The translations under genes and the position numbers were made by a program. Below are positions 5,663 to 53,525 of a stretch of DNA of 64,000 bases, piece after piece. Numbering within the stretch: position 1 is the first letter of the stretch; every line of letters begins with the position of its first letter. Source of the stretch: a candidate division WOR-3 bacterium (GTDB lineage Bacteria > Hydrothermota > Tepidihabitantia > SM23-42); assembly GCA_020349965.1 (NCBI GenBank), contig CP070705.1, forward strand, positions 545,934 to 609,933. Reading direction: 5' to 3'. A model generated the notes under the pieces. The model did no database searches and was not told the origin of the DNA. It saw only the letters and a list, made by a program, of their open reading frames with translations.

Positions 5663-5942
5663 ATATCCTCCTTATTACATGACTACGTGCCTGCTTGTTG
5701 TTTCTTATTATAATTGTGTTTCAATTCTTGTCAATGATCTGGAATGATCTTCAGCAAATTGGTGCAATGGCAGTGTGCTTCTTCCATCCTGCACAGCGAA
5801 TAAGGCGTATTGTGCTTGGAATCTTGTAACCGGTGTCGTTGACAAGTCATTATTCAGTGTATACAATTCGTAACGTTATTACGGCAGTTGCTTCAGTTTC
5901 TTTTGCTTGATTTTGTGGAAGCGCAAGAAATAAGGAGGTCCA

Positions 5943-6323
5943 ATGAGACTAATCATTCGCTGGATCATTGTAGCTTTTTCACTCTTCGTGGCAGCCTGGC
6001 TTGTCCCGGGCATCCGTGTGGAAGGTAATGCATGGCTCATATTCACGGTCATGGCGGTCATTCTAGGTCTAGTGAACGCGATAATACGCCCCATTTTGGC
6101 ATTGCTCACATGTTCGCTCATCATCCTCACCTTGGGCTTGTTTGTTTTGGTGATAAACGCGATAACTCTGTGGCTTGCATCGTCAATAGCCGTTAATTGG
6201 TTTCATGTCGGATTCTACGTAGATGGCTTCTGGTCGGCATTCCTGGGTGCACTCATTGTGAGTGTTGTGACCGTGATTCTCTCGACTGTGTTTAAGGAAA
6301 GGGTGAAACTGCGCAACGCGTGA
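5943..6323 (+). CDS. YvlD/DUF360 (phage holin family IV-like) membrane protein
   Basis: 'WLVPGIRVEG...LVNAIIRPILALLT...ILTLGLFVLVINAITLWLAS' closely follows the DUF360/YvlD consensus. An AGGAGG RBS is present. Confidence 0.55.
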   Translation: MRLIIRWIIVAFSLFVAAWLVPGIRVEGNAWLIFTVMAVILGLVNAIIRPILALLTCSLIILTLGLFVLVINAITLWLASSIAVNWFHVGFYVDGFWSAFLGALIVSVVTVILSTVFKERVKLRNA

Positions 6324-9007: not shown

Positions 9008-9101
9008 AATACTTAAGCTAAGTCATTTAGTTTGTTGATGGTTAAGTAGAATACTCATATTCTAGATCCCCTCACTTATTAAAGACTTGAAAGGAGAAAA
9101 A
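9008..9101 (+). promoter_or_regulatory. Long conserved csp 5' UTR (candidate cold-responsive RNA thermometer / cold box)
   Basis: About 90% identical to 11320-11411 and partly conserved with 35662-35747. Long structured 5' UTRs are a known feature of cspA-type genes. Confidence 0.45.
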
Positions 9102-9305
9102 ATGACTTACGGAAAAGTCAAATGGTTCGATGGCAGAAAAGGCTATGGTTTCATTGAGAAAGAAGACGGAACCGGTGATGTTTTTGTCCATTATGGCGAC
9201 ATAGCGGGCGGCGGTTATCGTTCACTTAATGAAGGCGATAGAGTTAAGTTTGAGCTTGGCCAGTCTACAAAAGGTCCAAAAGCTACACAAGTCGAACTTG
9301 CATAA
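9102..9305 (+). CDS. csp: Cold-shock protein, CspA family
   Basis: 'MTYGKVKWFDGRKGYGFIEKEDGTGDVFVHYGDI' contains the RNP1 and RNP2 motifs of the cold-shock domain. Confidence 0.9.
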   Translation: MTYGKVKWFDGRKGYGFIEKEDGTGDVFVHYGDIAGGGYRSLNEGDRVKFELGQSTKGPKATQVELA

Positions 9306-9323
9306 TATGCAATAAATGCATAG

Positions 9324-11319: not shown

Positions 11320-11411
11320 AAACGTTAAGAAAGTCATTTAGTTTGTTGAAGGTACGGTAGAATACTCATATTCTCGATCCCCTCAATAAATAAAGACTTG
11401 AAAGGAGAAAA

Positions 11412-11615
11412 ATGACTTACGGAAAAGTCAAATGGTTCGATAGCAGAAAAGGCTATGGTTTCATCGAAAAAGAAGACGGAACCGGTGACGTTTTTGTCCA
11501 CTATGGTGACATAGCGGGCGATGGTTATCGATCCCTTAATGAAGGCGAAAGAGTTAAGTTTGAAATAACTCAATCCCCCAAAGGGGCGAAAGCTTCGAAT
11601 GTCGAACTTGCATAA
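11412..11615 (+). CDS. csp: Cold-shock protein, CspA family (paralog 2)
   Basis: Differs from copy 1 at only a few residues. Its 5' UTR is conserved with copy 1. Confidence 0.9.
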   Translation: MTYGKVKWFDSRKGYGFIEKEDGTGDVFVHYGDIAGDGYRSLNEGERVKFEITQSPKGAKASNVELA

Positions 11616-11635
11616 CATGTGATAACACACATGCG

Positions 11636-14139: not shown

Positions 14140-17100
14140 ATGTATTATCTATTATTATGTTTGTGTTGTTTGATGTACCCTGCTGATATCGGCGCAGATA
14201 CCATCATAGTTATTCAGACATTGGATAGTCTGCTTGAACAGAGTGCGACGCATGCCGAAAGCTTCGAATTTGAGGAGGCAATATCTGTGTGCCGGGCTTC
14301 ACTTGCGATTGAATCCTTATTACAGGAGTACGGTATGGTCGCTCAAACATTTTATCGCATTGGTGAAGCATTTTACGAGTTGTCTGAATATGACAGTTCG
14401 CTGTATTACCTCGACTCGGCCCTGGTGCTTGCACGTGTGCTTAAGAGCGAGGATCTTGAATGCCACATTCTAAACAAAGTTGGTGAAAACAACGAGCGGT
14501 TGAGCGAGTTTGAAAAGGCGCTCGCGTTCTATGACTCGGCGCTTGCAGTGGCAATTGCCACGAAGGATAAGCGTATTGAAGGTCTCATCTTATGCAATAT
14601 CGGATGGACCCTCGATGCCTTGAGCAAATATGAAGAGGCTTTTGTGTATCATGATTCAGCCCATGCTATAGCACATGCAGTTGGAGACAAACGCTTAGAA
14701 GGTCGGATCCTGCGGCGGCTTGGGACTGCTTGCAGCGTGCTTGGCCAATTCGATCGCGCCCTTGCGTGCTACGATTCGGCGCTCGTGATCGCGCATCAGA
14801 CCAACGACAGGCGACTTGAAGGCCGCACGCTTATGGGCATAGGCCGCGTAAAGTTTGCGCTCGACGACTATGATGAAACACTGGCGATCAACCGACTTGC
14901 GCTTGATGTGATGCGCGCTACCAGAGATAGGGTATCAGAAGGATATGTGCTCGATTGTAGTGGCATGGCTTATCGTATGCTCTGCGAATATGATAGCGCG
15001 TTTGCATGTCACCGGGCTGCATTGACTATCAGGAGGAAGGTAAAAGACCGTATGGGTGAGGGGAACGCACTGGTGAATTTGGGGCTGACGTACATCGACG
15101 AGTACAAGTATGAAGAAGCGCTTGCATACCTGGATTCCGGATTGGCTATCGCGAAGGCAATTAAAAACCACACGGGGAAAGAGATCATCTATATCTCGGT
15201 TGGTTCAATATTCGACGATTTAGCACATTATGAAAACGCTTTGGCGTATTATGACTCGGCGCTTGTGATATCACGGGAGACAGGTGAGAAAATGAGAGAG
15301 GGCTCACTGCTTATGTATATCGGAGGAATTTACCACGACCTGAAGCAGTATGAGCGGGCACTTCTGTATTACGATTCTGCTTGGGTGTGTCTAAGAGAGC
15401 TGAGGATAGAATATACTGATGCGCTGATCCTCGTGTACGCCGGTGCTGCCTACTGTGCACTAAAGCAATACAGAAGAGCTTTGAGTGTTTATGATTCGGC
15501 ACTGGTGACAATTCGGACAATAGATGAGCAGAGATTGGAAGGTGTGATATTGCATAACATGAGCAACGTGTATTTTGACCTTGGACAATATGATACGGCT
15601 TCCGCTTATCTTGATTCAGCGTTTGTGCTAGTCGACAAGGTTCATAATATGTTTCGCAAGGCTTCTATCCTATGCCGGAGGGGTACAATTCTTCGTATGC
15701 AAGAGAAGTATGATCGTGCTCTTTCGTACTATGATTCGGCGCTCGTGGTGGCAAGAGAGATAAGGGACCAAAGCACAGAAGGCACAACACTTCACGAGAT
15801 CGGTTATTTGCATGAGCAGGTCTCGGATATAGAAAATGCTGTTGCATTTTACAAACAGTCTATTGATGTAAAAGAATCCATCAGGGAAGCATTGCAGCAC
15901 GAAGAGCTGAAATCCTATTACATTGAAGCGGAGAGGGACATCTACGAACGATTAATCAACTTGCTCATCATATTACAACGCTACAAAGAAGCATTTGATT
16001 ATATGGAGCGGAGTCGTTCGCAGAAGATACGGCGAAAACTCGAGAGGCAGGATATCGTGGCCTTTGACCCTTCGCTTAGAAGGATACAGCAGCGCATTAA
16101 TTTCGCTGAGGCAGAGATGCACGGGTTGAATTTGAGATTGCGAGAAAGAAGATTGCCGCACGATGAGTATGTTCAGAAAATGACCGAGCTTGAAGGCAGG
16201 CGCAATCAGCTTATGTTTGATTTGAAAACCTATCACCCCGAGTACTATAATTTCATGGTACCCCACATCATATCACTGGAAACCGTTCAGGGCTGGATTC
16301 CAGAAAACACAGTGTTTGTGGAATACGTACTAACTGGTGAGCACTACACTGTGTTTCTCGTTGCGGACAAATTATTTTTGCTGAAGAAACTAACATATCC
16401 CCGGTCTCTTATCGACAGTGTGGTACGTGACGCACTAAGCGATCTTAGATGGTTGCGCGATAAGACGGTGATCGATGCCCACCTCCAAGATCTGTACTTG
16501 TTACTAATGGAACCATTAGAAGCGACGTTGAATGATTTTAGCGATGTTGTCATCATTCCTTGGGGATTACTTCATTATGTGCCGTTTCATGCTTTGAGGA
16601 AGAACAGGGCGCAAGGCGGCGGGTACGAATACATGATGGAATGGAAGAGGGTCAATTACCTGCCATCGGCTCAATTTTTGCAGGACTTGTCGCCCATCGA
16701 ACGCAAGCAAGAAGAAAAGTTATTGGCATTCGCGAATTGCGACGGCACGTTACCCTGCGCAGAAATCGAGGTCGACTCAATCTGCGAGATATACCCCGAT
16801 GCGTGTATCTGCAAGAAAGACAGCGCGACAAAGGAACAGTTCATCACGATGTGTGGCGAATACGAGCTACTCCATCTGGCCACACACGGGATCCTTGATC
16901 CTGATCCGCGTTTTTCCCATATTGTCTTTGCGCCGACAGGTTCGGGCAATCTCACGGTCAGAGAAATACTTGGTCTGTCCGGACGTTTTGATCACACTTC
17001 TCTTGTCACGCTCTCGTCGTGTGAAACGGCCATCGAAGAGGATCCCGAGAAGGCAGGTACGGAATTGACAACACTCGCCGTGGGATTCAAGATGGCGGGT

Positions 17101-35661: not shown

Positions 35662-35747
35662 TAGCTTAAGTCACATGGTTTGTTGGCGGAGTTCAGAATA
35701 TCAAAATTCTCACCCCCTCAATAAATATGGACTTGAAAGGAGCAAAT

Positions 35748-35951
35748 ATGGTGTATGGAAAGGTGAAATGGTTCGATAGTAGGAAAGGGTATGGTTTCAT
35801 AGAGAAAGAAGACGGAACCGGTGATGTTTTTGTTCACTACGCGGATATCGCAGGTGAAGGATATCGGTCCCTTAGAGAAGGCGAGAGAGTTAAGTTTGAG
35901 ATTACCCAATCCCCCAAAGGGGATAAAGCTACAAAGGTCGAACTTGCATAA
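35748..35951 (+). CDS. csp: Cold-shock protein, CspA family (paralog 3)
   Basis: 'MVYGKVKWFDSRKGYGFIEKEDGTGDVFVHYADI'. An AAAGGAG RBS is present. Confidence 0.9.
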   Translation: MVYGKVKWFDSRKGYGFIEKEDGTGDVFVHYADIAGEGYRSLREGERVKFEITQSPKGDKATKVELA

Positions 35952-35968
35952 CACTCAACGAATGTAAG

Positions 35969-50131: not shown

Positions 50132-51286
50132 ATGAAAGGGGTGTCCATGTGTGATTTGCGCAGCTGCATTTTGGTCATAGTGCTTGGGATGTTATCGTCC
50201 TCTGGCACGATAAAAGCTGAAGATGATTTGTCTGTACCTCAGTTCTACTCGGCACGGTCGAAATCATCTCGATATCCGGCGACACACAGGGCCACGCCGC
50301 CGCTGCTGGCTGCGTTTGCAGCACCGGATGGAGCAATGCGCGGTCTTGCGTATGACGGTCAATATCTGTGGGCTGCAAACAGTGGTGACGGCAACAGCAT
50401 CGGCGGTTCCAAGATCTACAAGCTCGATCCTGACAGCGGTACGGTCCTCGTTGCGCTCAACGCACCGAGTGATTATGCCTGTGGTCTAACGTGGGATGGT
50501 CAATACCTGTGGTATTCGGCGTATATCACCGGTCTGATCCATCAACTCGACACCTTTGCCATGACTGTACTTAAAACCTTCAACGCGCCGACAACCCATC
50601 CTTTTGACCTGGCATGGGATGGCATGCGTCTCTACGCGGTCAGAGGCAATCAGACTTATATATCGGTAATCGACACCAGTGACGGTGAGGAAGTGGATTC
50701 GATTGAAACCACATATTCATCGCCAAATGTCCGGCCGTTTGGGCTGACGTTCCTACCGAGAAGCGCACCACAGCTACTTACCTCTGATGGCGACTATGGC
50801 TCCAATCTCGTGCATGTGTGGAATTTCTACACAAGCGCGTGGCTGGACCAGTGGGCTTCAGAACCTGCAGTATATCCATCCGGGCTTGCGTACGATTCGG
50901 TGACCGAACGGATGTGGGTATCTTGCTACGAACGGGATTCCATATACGTGTATGACGTCAGCCAGGTGGGCGTGCTCTCGGACGAACTCGTGACCATACC
51001 CGCATCCGGGATTCATGTGCACCCGAATCCGTTCAACCATAAGACTAAAATCGGATACACGATACACGATGCAGGATACCTGCCTGGAGAAACAACGCTG
51101 AATGTATATGATGCTACAGGCAGGTTGGTAAGGTCTTTATATCTTGAATCTAGTATCGTGAATCATGAATCAGCTGTTTGGTGGGACGGTACGGATGATA
51201 ATGGCCATATATTGCCTGGGGGTGTGTATTATGTCGTTGCACCGGTTAAAAGTCTTATAGTAAAATTGGTGAAAACGAGTAAGTGA
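50132..51286 (+). CDS. Secreted beta-propeller-repeat protein with T9SS C-terminal sorting domain
   Basis: Signal peptide and a recurring 'WDGQYLW/WDGMRLY' blade motif. The C-terminal 'VYDATGRLVRSLYLE...GVYYVVAP' is a T9SS CTD. Confidence 0.45.
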   Translation: MKGVSMCDLRSCILVIVLGMLSSSGTIKAEDDLSVPQFYSARSKSSRYPATHRATPPLLAAFAAPDGAMRGLAYDGQYLWAANSGDGNSIGGSKIYKLDPDSGTVLVALNAPSDYACGLTWDGQYLWYSAYITGLIHQLDTFAMTVLKTFNAPTTHPFDLAWDGMRLYAVRGNQTYISVIDTSDGEEVDSIETTYSSPNVRPFGLTFLPRSAPQLLTSDGDYGSNLVHVWNFYTSAWLDQWASEPAVYPSGLAYDSVTERMWVSCYERDSIYVYDVSQVGVLSDELVTIPASGIHVHPNPFNHKTKIGYTIHDAGYLPGETTLNVYDATGRLVRSLYLESSIVNHESAVWWDGTDDNGHILPGGVYYVVAPVKSLIVKLVKTSK

Positions 51287-51299
51287 CACAGCACGCAAT

Positions 51300-52354
51300 G
51301 GGGTCAGATCTTGACTATTGACAATTTCCTGATGCCCTTCTCGGCTGCTTCGTAAAGCACTGCGATTTTTTGTTTCTTGGCGATTCTACTTTGTAGGCGC
51401 GAGCGTAGTTTGCTCACTGCAGAATAGCTGATGCCTCCCAGCATGTCGCCAATTTGCGACTGCGTCAAATCTGAATACTTGTATAACAAATCTGCAGCTA
51501 TACTCCTCGCTTCGCTGTTGACATAGCAAGCAAGAATCTCTTTCTCTGTGACGCTACAGGCTTTTGCAGTCTGTTCTATAACGCGGTGGGGATTGACGCG
51601 CTGGACCACCAGCTCGCGGTACGAAGGTTGCTCTTGCTTTGATCCCTCCTCAATACACTCTGCCCGGATTTTCTTTACGAAGCTCTCATCGCCAAGAAGC
51701 AGACCGTACTTTACGTCCATGAAAGGATTTTTTACTTCCTTCTTGATGGCGTCGATAACAAATTGCGAATAGGATTTACGACCTCCAGTCATGGATAGTG
51801 TTAGGTCGTAGTATACGAATGCTACTGCATTTTTCGCTCTCATGTATCCAGGGAGACTACTCCACCGGTATGATGAAAGATGTCGCAATCGACGCTCATA
51901 TCCTGAGGCTGAAAACTGCGGGGTGCGTAATGCATTCAAATGAATATACCTGGAGACCTCTAGTAGGTAATTATCGGCATCTATTACTATTGCCTTATAC
52001 CGACCTTGGAATAGATGACCATACCTGTCATGACGATGATTGAACCATCCCACATACGTAACATTGAGTGTGCGTACAAACTCGGCGCAGTTCGGTTTGA
52101 GTGTTTGGATGAGAAGGTGGTAATGATTGTCCATTAGAATATATGCATGAATCCTAACAGAATATGTTTTGGCCGAATCGGCGAGCAGAGAGACAAATCT
52201 ACTTCGATCATCGTCGGCATAGAAAATTCTCTGTCTGCTATTGCCCCGACACATCAAATGGTAGTGCGCACCGGGAAATTGGATACGCAGTGGGCGTGCC
52301 ATGAAATCAGTCTAGTTGCAGTGCAAGAATTGTCAATGGTCAAGATCTGACCCC
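51300..52354. mobile_element. IS-like element: Y1 (IS200/RAYT-like) transposase gene bounded by 27-bp imperfect terminal inverted repeats
   Basis: Left end GGGGTCAGATCTTGACTATTGACAATT (51300-51326). The reverse complement of the right end (52328-52354) is GGGGTCAGATCTTGACCATTGACAATT, a 26/27 match. No target-site duplication detected. Confidence 0.55.
51304..52302 (-). CDS. IS200-like / REP-associated Y1 tyrosine transposase with C-terminal DnaA-C-like HTH domain
   Basis: 'AHYHLMCRG...IHAYILMDNHYHLLIQT' HuH motif and a '...SRYIHLNALR' catalytic Tyr context. The C-terminal 'LTQSQIGDMLGGISYSAVSKLRSRL' is a DnaA domain IV-like HTH. Confidence 0.6.
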   Translation of the reverse strand: MARPLRIQFPGAHYHLMCRGNSRQRIFYADDDRSRFVSLLADSAKTYSVRIHAYILMDNHYHLLIQTLKPNCAEFVRTLNVTYVGWFNHRHDRYGHLFQGRYKAIVIDADNYLLEVSRYIHLNALRTPQFSASGYERRLRHLSSYRWSSLPGYMRAKNAVAFVYYDLTLSMTGGRKSYSQFVIDAIKKEVKNPFMDVKYGLLLGDESFVKKIRAECIEEGSKQEQPSYRELVVQRVNPHRVIEQTAKACSVTEKEILACYVNSEARSIAADLLYKYSDLTQSQIGDMLGGISYSAVSKLRSRLQSRIAKKQKIAVLYEAAEKGIRKLSIVKI

Positions 52355-52433
52355 GAGGAGTTTGTCCCGCTGCCGCATCACTGAACCACAGACATCTGGA
52401 CAGTGTCTAAATTAGAGATAGGAGGATCGTAAT

Positions 52434-53525
52434 ATGAAGTGGTTTTCATTGGCCACCATTCTCGCGGTCTTCACCATTAGCATGTGCAAGAGCGAGGGTG
52501 CGGCTGAAGATAAGGGGATGGGTATGACGAAAAACAGCGGCAGTTATGAGAAGGCAACATTCGCAGGCGGGTGTTTCTGGTGTATGGAACCACCCTTTGA
52601 GAATTTGGATGGTGTGATAGAGGTAGTTCCGGGATATACCGGCGGTCAGACAGTAGATCCTACCTACGGGCAGGTCTCAAGTGGCACGACCGGTCATCTT
52701 GAGGCGGTTCAGGTAACCTATGACCCTTCTAAGATTGACTATACCGGAATGCTAGAGGTGTTTTGGATGCAGATAGATCCAACGGACGGCAGTGGCCAGT
52801 TCGTCGATCGTGGTTCTCAGTACAGCACGGCAATATTCTATCATAGCGAGGAACAGAAGAGGATCGCAGAAGAGTCAAAGTTGCGGCTCCAGAAGTCAGG
52901 GAGGTTCAGCAAGCCGATCGTTACTCAGATAAGGCCGTTCACCGAATTTTACGAAGCAGAGGATTATCACAAGGATTTCTACAAGAAGAGCCCTGTTCGA
53001 TACAAGACATATAAACTCTTCTCGGGGCGGGAAGCGTTTCAGAAGAAGAACTGGAGTGATGCGGCAGGGGAAGAAACTGAAAGTCGGTATAAGAAGCCTT
53101 CGGAGAAGGAGATTCGCGCGAAATTGACGCCAGAACAATACAGTGTTACACAGCAGTGCGGAACTGAACCTCCTTTTCAGAATGAATACTGGAATAACAA
53201 GAGAGAAGGTATCTACGTCGACGTAGTCTCTGGCGAGCCGCTCTTCAGTTCGAAAGACAAGTTCGATTCAGGCAGTGGCTGGCCGAGTTTCTTCCGTCCG
53301 ATAGATGAGATGAACATCGTTGAAAACGTGGATTCCAGTCACGGAATGGTGCGAACCGAGGTCCGCAGCGGAATCGGTGATTCCCATCTCGGGCATGTGT
53401 TCAATGATGGCCCTGAACCAACCGGCCTGCGGTATTGCATTAACTCTGCCTCTTTACGCTTCATACCAAAAGAGGATCTTGATAAGGAAGGGTATGGAGC
53501 ATACAAGATTCTCTTTGAGGAATAA
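52434..53525 (+). CDS. msrAB: Bifunctional peptide methionine sulfoxide reductase MsrA-MsrB (lipoprotein)
   Basis: MsrA '[11 protein letters not shown]', an MsrB zinc site, and '[11 protein letters not shown]' catalytic Cys. Signal peptide with Cys. Confidence 0.85.

Follow-up and report, generated by a model that had tools for sequence, protein, structure and literature searches.

RAYT-like genes with long terminal inverted repeats (TIRs) on either side were described in 2013 by Di Nocera, De Gregorio and Rocco (BMC Genomics 14:522, PMC3733652), who named the encoded proteins TIRYT and the repeat-bounded units TIRtrons. According to these authors, the 26 published examples come from cultured Proteobacteria, Acidobacteria and others, share the terminal motif GGGGWSAS, keep a similar distance between repeat and open reading frame (ORF) and have repeats that can overlap the ORF ends, while the repeat families are present as singles, dimers or clusters in some genomes only. 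In 2018, Quentin, Siguier, Chandler and Fichant (PMC6006769) equated TIRYT with subclass 2.1 of TnpA_REP, which they found in 14.9% of the strains sampled. In their classification, Y---N(P) is the signature of class 2 (TnpA_REP), whereas IS200-type enzymes carry Y---Q, and the C-termini of group 2.1.2 resemble Bac_DnaA_C, HTH_23 or HTH_28, although these authors doubted that the helix-turn-helix (HTH) reads the repeats. Here, we analyzed a unit of this kind in a 64-kb stretch of DNA (64,000 nucleotides, referred to as the window) from a candidate division WOR-3 bacterium. The unit lies on the minus strand at 51300..52354, is 1055 bp long and is bounded on both sides by a 27-nt inverted repeat.

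A first-pass annotation of the window had offered three options for this unit, one of them being an undescribed insertion sequence (IS) family. This option can be set aside, as the architecture had been described as TIRYT/TIRtron in PMC3733652 and was later classed as TnpA_REP subclass 2.1 in PMC6006769. A second option, a REP/RAYT-like domesticated element, came closest of the three. We assign the unit, with high confidence, to the known but uncharacterised TIRYT/TIRtron class (TnpA_REP subclass 2.1), of which it is a WOR-3 member. Our finding should thus be considered mainly as the correction of a label, from a new IS family to a WOR-3 TIRYT/TIRtron.

The encoded protein, its repeats and its predicted promoter

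The TIRYT gene (51304..52302, minus strand) starts with ATG and encodes a protein of 332 aa, in which a RAYT-like Y1/HUH nuclease is followed by a helical linker and an HTH domain that resembles domain IV of DnaA. The catalytic domain (residues 1-130; 51913..52302, minus strand) scores 55 bits against Pfam Y1_Tnp, for which the cut-off is 23, so that the N-terminal HUH/Y1 domain proposed at first pass is borne out by its profile. The HUH motif is found at H60-Y-H62 and the catalytic tyrosine in the context Y119-I-H-L-N123, which corresponds to the Y---N of group 2.1.2. In an alignment of 32 homologues with 39-76% identity, H60, H62, Y119 and N123 are invariant, while the residue following N123 is Ala in the window clade and Pro in most homologues. 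Past the catalytic core, the window protein carries a Ser-containing motif, W147-S148-S149. The best NCBIfam model, REP_Tyr_transpos (NF047646), reaches 47.9 bits against a cut-off of 80, and the arms begin with GGGG, so that the protein is not a RAYT in the strict sense, which includes GTAG-tagged REP hairpins. The IS200/IS605 family does not fit either, with transpos_IS200 reaching 20.4 bits against a cut-off of 55, Asn standing in place of Gln, TIRs being present and the paralogues described below being only 48-59% identical.

The AlphaFold2 model of the window protein has a pLDDT (predicted local distance difference test) of 85.8. With this model, Foldseek gave E. coli RAYT 4ER8 as the best match (E 5.8e-5), followed by the TnpA proteins of IS608 and ISDra2 (E about 1e-4). 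Residues 233-327 (51322..51606, minus strand) were assigned to a DnaA domain IV-like HTH by both profile and fold, in agreement with the first-pass annotation: these 95 C-terminal residues match DnaA domain IV with a TM-score of 0.86 and a root-mean-square deviation of 1.7 A for 3PVP and a TM-score of 0.82 for 1J1V, and a profile search of solved structures retrieved the DnaA DNA-binding domains 3PVP, 8BTG and 1J1V with E-values of 0.002-0.003. The Pfam scores of the window protein itself are, however, below threshold (Bac_DnaA_C, 17.6 bits with a cut-off of 31.5; HTH_23, 16.6 bits), although precomputed PF08299 matches are present in its relatives. An identical protein sequence was found in a WOR-3 metagenome-assembled genome, where it is annotated as 'transposase'.

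An inverted-repeat finder placed the TIR arms at 51300-51326 (GGGGTCAGATCTTGACTATTGACAATT) and 52328-52354 (AATTGTCAATGGTCAAGATCTGACCCC), each being 27 nt long, with 26 of the 27 positions (96%) complementary and 1001 nt between them. The pair is the longest inverted repeat of the window, the 27-mer is found with up to 3 mismatches at two sites only, both of them the arms, and none of 100 dinucleotide shuffles contained a match, so the near-perfect 27-bp TIRs reported at first pass are real and a chance repeat is ruled out. The upstream, gene-proximal 5' arm (52328..52354, minus strand) reads GGGGTCAGATCTTGACCATTGACAATT on the gene strand, its outer half being the family-wide motif and its inner end TTGACA. 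Its terminus, GGGGTCAG, fits the GGGGWSAS of PMC3733652, and long TIRs take the place of REP hairpins, as also described there. The downstream arm (51300..51326, minus strand) covers the TGA stop codon (51304-51306) together with the final 7 codons (LSIVKI*). The statement that the TIRs sit exactly at the ORF ends therefore has to be refined: the 3' arm reaches into the ORF, and the 5' arm ends 25 nt ahead of the ATG, these 25 nt being occupied by the predicted promoter spacer and -10 box.

The downstream arm is located between two convergent genes, where terminators are expected, and one could thus consider the inverted repeat as a chance or structural feature, such as a bidirectional terminator or an RNA panhandle, that is unrelated to the protein. 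We give this explanation practically no chance. No match is expected by chance, neither a terminator-like site nor an Rfam family was found at the arms, and the predicted start of transcription lies past the upstream arm, so that no single RNA would contain both arms. Moreover, the motif follows the gene across phyla, and this family-wide association already refutes such an origin. Just outside the TIRtron, a separate 24-nt inverted repeat (88%; 52359-52382 and 53055-53078) pairs the msrAB upstream region with a site within msrAB.

For the family-wide analysis, more than 7,400 protein homologues were retrieved, and the flanks of 80 genome loci (from WOR-3, Stahlbacteria, Desulfobacterota, Nitrospirota, Binatia, Auribacterota and others), together with three loci obtained by protein look-up, were scanned, 78 of which were usable. 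Most of these 78 loci carry an inverted repeat at both gene ends, with a perfect core of at least 14 nt in about 65, and the TIRs are thus not unique to the window locus, as the first-pass annotation had allowed they might be. The conserved motif is GGGGTCAAATCT, followed by about 6-7 variable bases and then by TTGACA. In loci that carry this motif, the beginning of the upstream arm is mostly found about 52-56 nt ahead of the ATG (the homologous arm spanning about -54 to -28), in line with the similar ORF distance given in the 2013 description. At the other end of the gene, the stop codon either is overlapped by the downstream arm or lies shortly before it. The two halves of the repeat differ in conservation: the outer 12 nt are near-invariant (mean of 0.5 differences between loci), whereas the inner 15 nt are lineage-specific, with a mean of 5.7 differences between loci and 2.8 between the arms of one locus. 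Even a Legionella plasmid homologue with 32% identity is flanked by a 26-nt repeat, GGAGGGTCAGGCC..., which is of a related GGGTCAGG-type and overlaps the stop codon.

Some loci carry additional forms of the repeat. Upstream of some genes (L002, L014, L016, L038, L039 and L051; loci from other genomes and metagenomes are given as L numbers), two or three direct copies stand in tandem, with a period of about 33-42 nt (e.g., L002:5872-5972, L016:3910-3980 and L014:1087-1150), and a gene-less array of three copies with a period of 42 nt is found at L157:3273-3380. In L034 (3400-5960) and L043 (3941-5380), tandem partial duplications comprising the repeat, the promoter and the first 77-105 codons lie directly upstream of the full gene, the encoded N-terminal residues in L043 being identical to those of the full copy; these could reflect one-ended copying starting at the repeat or plain slippage. 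At L034:3748-3790 and 5920-5960 and at L052:~120-160, the repeat is interrupted after GGGGTCAAATCTTTAC by foreign sequence ending in GGCCTGTTGCCCAAAC, with DDE-transposase-like text nearby, which looks like insertion of another IS within the repeat at two independent loci. Finally, a repeat copy at L145:489-540 is followed by a short microsatellite in which its inner motif, (TTTGACA), recurs about four times.

The only promoter-like site between positions 51100 and 52500 is a predicted sigma70-type promoter (52309..52336, minus strand), which matches at 10 of 12 positions. Its -35 box, TTGACA (52336-52331), lies inside the TIR and is followed by a 16-nt spacer and the -10 box TAGACT (52314-52309), with 6 nt between the -10 box and the ATG at 52302. 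In the family, TANNNT is found 16-18 nt past the TTGACA of the arm in 21 of 52 upstream arms, as compared to 1 of 51 downstream arms in the antisense reading, and in 17 of these 21 promoter-bearing upstream arms, the -10 box ends exactly 6 nt before the ATG. As 6 nt leave no room for a Shine-Dalgarno sequence, the TIRYT mRNA is probably leaderless. A protein bound to the upstream arm would cover the -35 box, which would result in autoregulation, and autoregulation by end binding is likewise implied by the layout as a whole, where the -35 box is placed in one repeat and the ORF end in the other, as in classical ISs. An antisense promoter in the downstream arm was rejected, given that a -10 box is present in only 1 of 51 such arms and is absent from that of the window.

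We also considered which part of the protein reads which half of the repeat, using the residues aligned with D-H-T-T-V of DnaA, the base-contacting residues in the 1J1V complex. These residues differ by repeat type. The inner half TTGACTATTGACAA is accompanied by the HTH residues G(I/V)SYS, CGAAACTTGACAA by DYTGVSKLRV, C(G/A)ACA... by DYSAVNKLR, AAACATTTGACA by DYMSVYQLR and TTTGCATTTTG by DYVSVHHLR, while the outer-half variant AAACCT is accompanied by VS(V/A)AAL. L016 presents both the repeat type of the window and the S-Y-S motif, yet its overall identity of 47% makes it no nearer a relative than lineages of other repeat types. This co-variation is suggestive only, yet it mildly argues that the HTH reads the repeats, contrary to the doubt expressed in PMC6006769.

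Such features also raise the option of a purely regulatory cassette, in which the HTH protein would serve as a transcription factor on operators at the gene ends and at the dispersed doublets described below, with the HUH domain being catalytically irrelevant or not used for DNA mobilisation. The upstream repeat indeed overlaps the -35 box at a fixed position, the tandem upstream repeats resemble operator arrays, the HTH recognition residues vary together with the repeat's inner half, and vertical inheritance under purifying selection is typical of a host gene. Nonetheless, we consider this explanation improbable. Across the 32 divergent homologues, none of the HUH histidines, the catalytic Tyr and the metal-site Asn varies, which speaks for catalysis having been retained. 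The downstream arm lacks a promoter that could be regulated, and within the repeat, conservation is highest in the outer GGGGTCAAATCT half rather than in the half proximal to the -35 box. In addition, the doublets were multiplied as whole units and in both orientations, for which a DNA-level copying mechanism is needed.

Residence of the unit at its locus

In six WOR-3 genomes (the window, L001, L002, L006, L087 and L094), the unit lies between a gene for a type IX secretion system (T9SS)-type secreted protein and msrAB, and its length of 1055 bp is the same in L001 (5949-7003) and L094 (1698-2752). The TIRYT orthologues at this shared site are 62-79% identical. The ratio of nonsynonymous to synonymous substitution rates (dN/dS) is 0.10 for the window versus L001 and 0.08 for L002 versus L094, at a dS of 1.3-1.5 (1.3 for the window and L001), while dS is saturated in the other pairs. 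Despite this divergence of the gene, only 0-1 nt separates the window arms from those of L001. Both arms of L002 carry one and the same A>G change, and in L003, one arm departs from the window at six positions, five of which have a mirrored counterpart in the other arm, while that other arm retains the sixth base. Arms that are near-unchanged or mirrored, together with a low dN/dS at a shared site, indicate that gene and repeats are under strong constraint and have long been at the site. The unit is thus an old, selected chromosomal resident and not a recent insertion, and the first-pass description of a unit inserted after a T9SS substrate gene is not supported as a recent event. In that neighbour itself, only FlgD_ig reaches its Pfam threshold (33 bits), and the T9SS sorting domain Por_Secre_tail is seen only as faint precomputed matches in orthologues.

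The unit is absent from L086, the closest genome (MsrAB 91% identical, flanks with 89-91% nucleotide identity), and from L088. Homology with L086 ends at 51286 and resumes at 52363, i.e. 13 nt and 8 nt outside the arms, such that gain or loss of the gene tracks the repeat boundaries within 8-13 nt. The place of the unit in L086 is, however, taken by 181 nt of unrelated DNA (L086:7749-7929), and a clean empty site, as sought on the suggestion of the first-pass annotation, was therefore rejected. Judged against shuffled controls, the 181-nt filler resembles neither the TIRtron nor other loci, and the gene-less intergenic regions of L086 and L088 are only marginally similar to each other (a score of 21, with a shuffle maximum of 19). 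No target-site duplication was seen flanking the repeats, and the only target motif is T at -1 (69%) with A/G-rich flanks.

These observations bear on whether the unit could be an autonomous IS from a family not listed so far (Y1/HUH, HTH and true TIRs), that is, a 1055-bp transposing unit beside a T9SS-type gene. The classic layout, with the promoter -35 box in the left repeat and the stop codon in the right, the constant 1055 bp in three genomes and presence/absence boundaries only 8-13 nt from the repeat ends would all be expected of such an element, as would truncated extra copies consisting of the repeat and the 5' end of the gene (L034, L043, L064 and L082), a contig of L087 that breaks exactly at the repeat, and the different genomic contexts in which lineages of the family are found. 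Even so, an autonomous IS is an unlikely explanation. Its site is shared by six genomes, dS is saturated and dN/dS is about 0.1, and target duplication, a precise empty site and recent copies are all missing. None of the genomes examined contains a near-identical second copy; genomes with two or three family members instead contain paralogues that are 48-59% identical, each with its own repeat type, and the same repeat types recur as orthologues in other genomes (71-77%). Carriage by plasmids or phages was found to be rare or absent, respectively, with the family in 24 of 72,556 plasmid records (one of them full-length) and the repeat absent from viral contigs. A shared site, old paralogues, the lack of target-site duplication, the rarity on plasmids and the lack of viral copies all argue against an active autonomous IS, as do the doublets described below, which are not deletion derivatives of the unit.

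With regard to L087, its 35.5-kb assembly contig begins exactly inside the repeat beside msrAB (L087:1-25), which suggests either that the assembler was stopped by repeat copies or that presence of the unit varies at the strain level.

Dispersed repeats and a proposed mechanism

Metagenome contigs were scanned by pattern for the repeat variant of this clade. The scan yielded 73 stretches, most of which are gene-less, the TIRYT gene being present in only about 7. In 34 stretches, the repeats form inverted doublets (GGGG...TTGACA, spacer, TGTCAA...CCCC), typically of 125-131 bp (about 127). In these related metagenomes, the repeat variant is thus dispersed in the manner described for some genomes in PMC3733652. 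The repeats of the doublets match the search pattern with at most 3 mismatches, many of them perfectly. Other forms include solo copies, a three-copy tandem array and two 43-bp perfect palindromes. The latter (L113:9088-9130 and L118:5569-5611) consist of two overlapping repeats with no spacer and are mutual reverse complements from different samples.

On contig Ga0224495_10000009, a 1055-bp TIRtron (L094) is found together with a doublet (L112), the repeats of the two being identical, and the repeats of the Ga0224495 doublets are 100% identical to those of the L094 TIRtron. The doublets of L096 are intergenic and lie 10-12 nt past gene ends. Spacers of different doublets fall into families with 66-79% identity, in both orientations (the null mean being 43% and the null maximum 64%). 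Spacer families combined with identical repeats indicate that the doublets were multiplied as units, after which only the repeats were preserved. When considered as single-stranded DNA, a doublet folds into a hairpin with a 27-bp stem (z -10). The dispersal is thus the REPIN/RAYT pattern with a different kind of repeat. Two other interpretations were rejected. Doublets are not deletion derivatives of the gene unit, as they share nothing with it but the 25-29-nt repeat, and a repeat pair that lies 3.4 kb apart in L125 is not a cargo element, as it encloses an ordinary ComM/YifB-like gene; this pair is probably two solo copies.

Starting from what was directly observed, namely how the unit is built, its conservation throughout the family, its synteny and the selection acting on it, and the doublets scattered through related genomes, we consider it fairly probable that the TIRtron is a RAYT/REPIN-like system, i.e. 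a self-regulated TIRYT gene that is bracketed by its cognate 27-bp TIRs and acts on dispersed repeats. Our confidence in the mechanism itself, in which a self-regulated RAYT-like nuclease binds and acts on its cognate repeats and maintains or multiplies the doublets, is moderate. In such a mechanism, transcription from the sigma70-type promoter, the -35 box of which is the inner end of the upstream repeat, would produce an mRNA that is presumably translated without a leader. The TIRYT protein would bind the repeats, with the HTH reading the variable inner half, while the HUH/Tyr domain would likely act, by cleavage, at the invariant outer half T|GGGGTCA(A/G)ATCT. Binding to the upstream repeat, which overlaps the -35 box, may repress the gene itself, as in many ISs. 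The same protein would maintain, and occasionally multiply, the repeat-bounded doublets of about 127 bp elsewhere in the genome, as RAYTs are thought to do with REPINs, while the gene would stay in place, being inherited vertically under purifying selection.

This proposal faces several difficulties that should be considered. The window contains no further copy of the 27-mer, and thus no dispersal is seen in the window itself. A single arm has no significant hairpin of the REP type (z -1.3 to -1.8), unlike the substrates of all characterised Y1 enzymes, so that action of the HUH domain on the repeat is a conjecture. The GGGG ends of the two arms lie on different strands, at odds with the same-strand chemistry known from IS200/IS605. 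The strict TANNNT test is passed by only 21 of the 52 upstream arms, and Spearman correlations between protein region and inner half are weak and similar across three regions (0.23, 0.29 and 0.30), the co-variation of HTH and repeat being largely confounded by phylogeny. The site in L086, where unrelated DNA fills the gap, is not a clean empty site. In the literature searched, finally, the term TIRYT appears only in PMC3733652 and PMC6006769, and no experiment on any TIRYT was found.

A further-reaching version, which we put forward tentatively and regard as a good deal less certain than the RAYT/REPIN-like reading, is that TIRYT and its doublets form a second widespread REPIN/RAYT-like resident repeat system with a different recognition logic. 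Here, a DnaA-type HTH would read a lineage-specific double-stranded half-site, the HUH domain would act on T|GGGGTCAAATCT, which is invariant from WOR-3 to Desulfobacterota, and the gene would repress itself through the repeat-embedded -35 box and a leaderless mRNA. If true, several orthogonal pairs of paralogue and repeat could coexist in one genome, HUH nucleases targeted by a reader of double-strand sequence would be seen here for the first time, and the system would be a tractable one in which to study how short repeats are retained and multiplied by bacteria. The class is large, considering the number of homologues that we retrieved and the share of strains reported in PMC6006769, yet its function is experimentally unaddressed in the literature searched. 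The comparative data make it testable, as they provide a 25-nt cross-phylum site with an invariant outer and a lineage-specific inner half, a repeat-built promoter, vertically inherited genes and REPIN-like doublets of about 127 bp. The results also bear on the role of domesticated Y1 nucleases and repeats in bacterial genomes.

Apart from the TIRtron, the window contains three paralogous genes for small cold-shock proteins (9020-9318, 11331-11628 and 35714-35964; MTYGKVKWFDGRKGYGFI...) with 79% nucleotide identity. Each is followed by a GC-rich hairpin terminator, and at least two share a conserved promoter/5' region; we consider them to be ordinary. A direct repeat with a period of 240 nt and 41-nt cores (GA..GC.CT.GCGT.CTA.GA.TCGGCGCT) in a coding region at 14512-15752 probably reflects a tetratricopeptide (TPR)-like repeat protein.

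Comparison with known systems

In classical TIR ISs of the IS1, IS10 and IS911 type, the transposase promoter lies in the left repeat. The window unit resembles these elements in its compactness (about 1 kb) and in having the -35 box in one repeat and the ORF end in the other. It differs from them in that its enzyme is not a DDE transposase, and in that there is neither target duplication nor evidence for multiple copies. With the TnpA proteins of IS200/IS605 elements (IS608, ISDra2), it shares the HUH/Y1 fold and, presumably, a single-strand DNA chemistry. Those proteins, however, are only about 130-150 aa long and carry Y---Q, and their elements lack TIRs, end in subterminal hairpins and occur in several near-identical copies.

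There is also a likeness to RAYT/REPIN systems, such as E. coli TnpA_REP (4ER8) and the REPINs of Pseudomonas. In both cases, a single-copy gene is passed on vertically and has inverted copies of its cognate repeat on its two sides, and the repeat is dispersed, for the window variant in related metagenomes, as inverted doublets of fixed length, whose spacers are less conserved and which multiply as units. The window repeat, nonetheless, is not a GTAG-tagged hairpin, and the window protein has about 200 extra residues, including an HTH of the kind that binds double-strand DNA.

Closest of all are TnpA_REP subclass 2.1, and specifically group 2.1.2, and the TIRYT/TIRtron class with which it was equated. 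The likeness to subclass 2.1 consists of the Y---N(P) signature, a long protein with a C-terminal HTH extension, the lack of REP-like hairpins near the gene and the Ser motif; it is a likeness by features, and in the window clade N123 is followed by Ala rather than by Pro. With the TIRtrons of PMC3733652, the window unit shares a Y1/HUH gene with long TIRs, a terminus that fits GGGGWSAS, a near-constant distance to the ORF and a possible overlap with the 3' end of the ORF. The published members come from cultured Proteobacteria, Acidobacteria and others, whereas the window member comes from candidate division WOR-3. Beyond what the consulted passages of that paper describe, the present analysis adds a predicted -35 box in the upstream repeat with a probable leaderless start, a 25-nt motif that is conserved across phyla, and long-term synteny of the unit at its locus.

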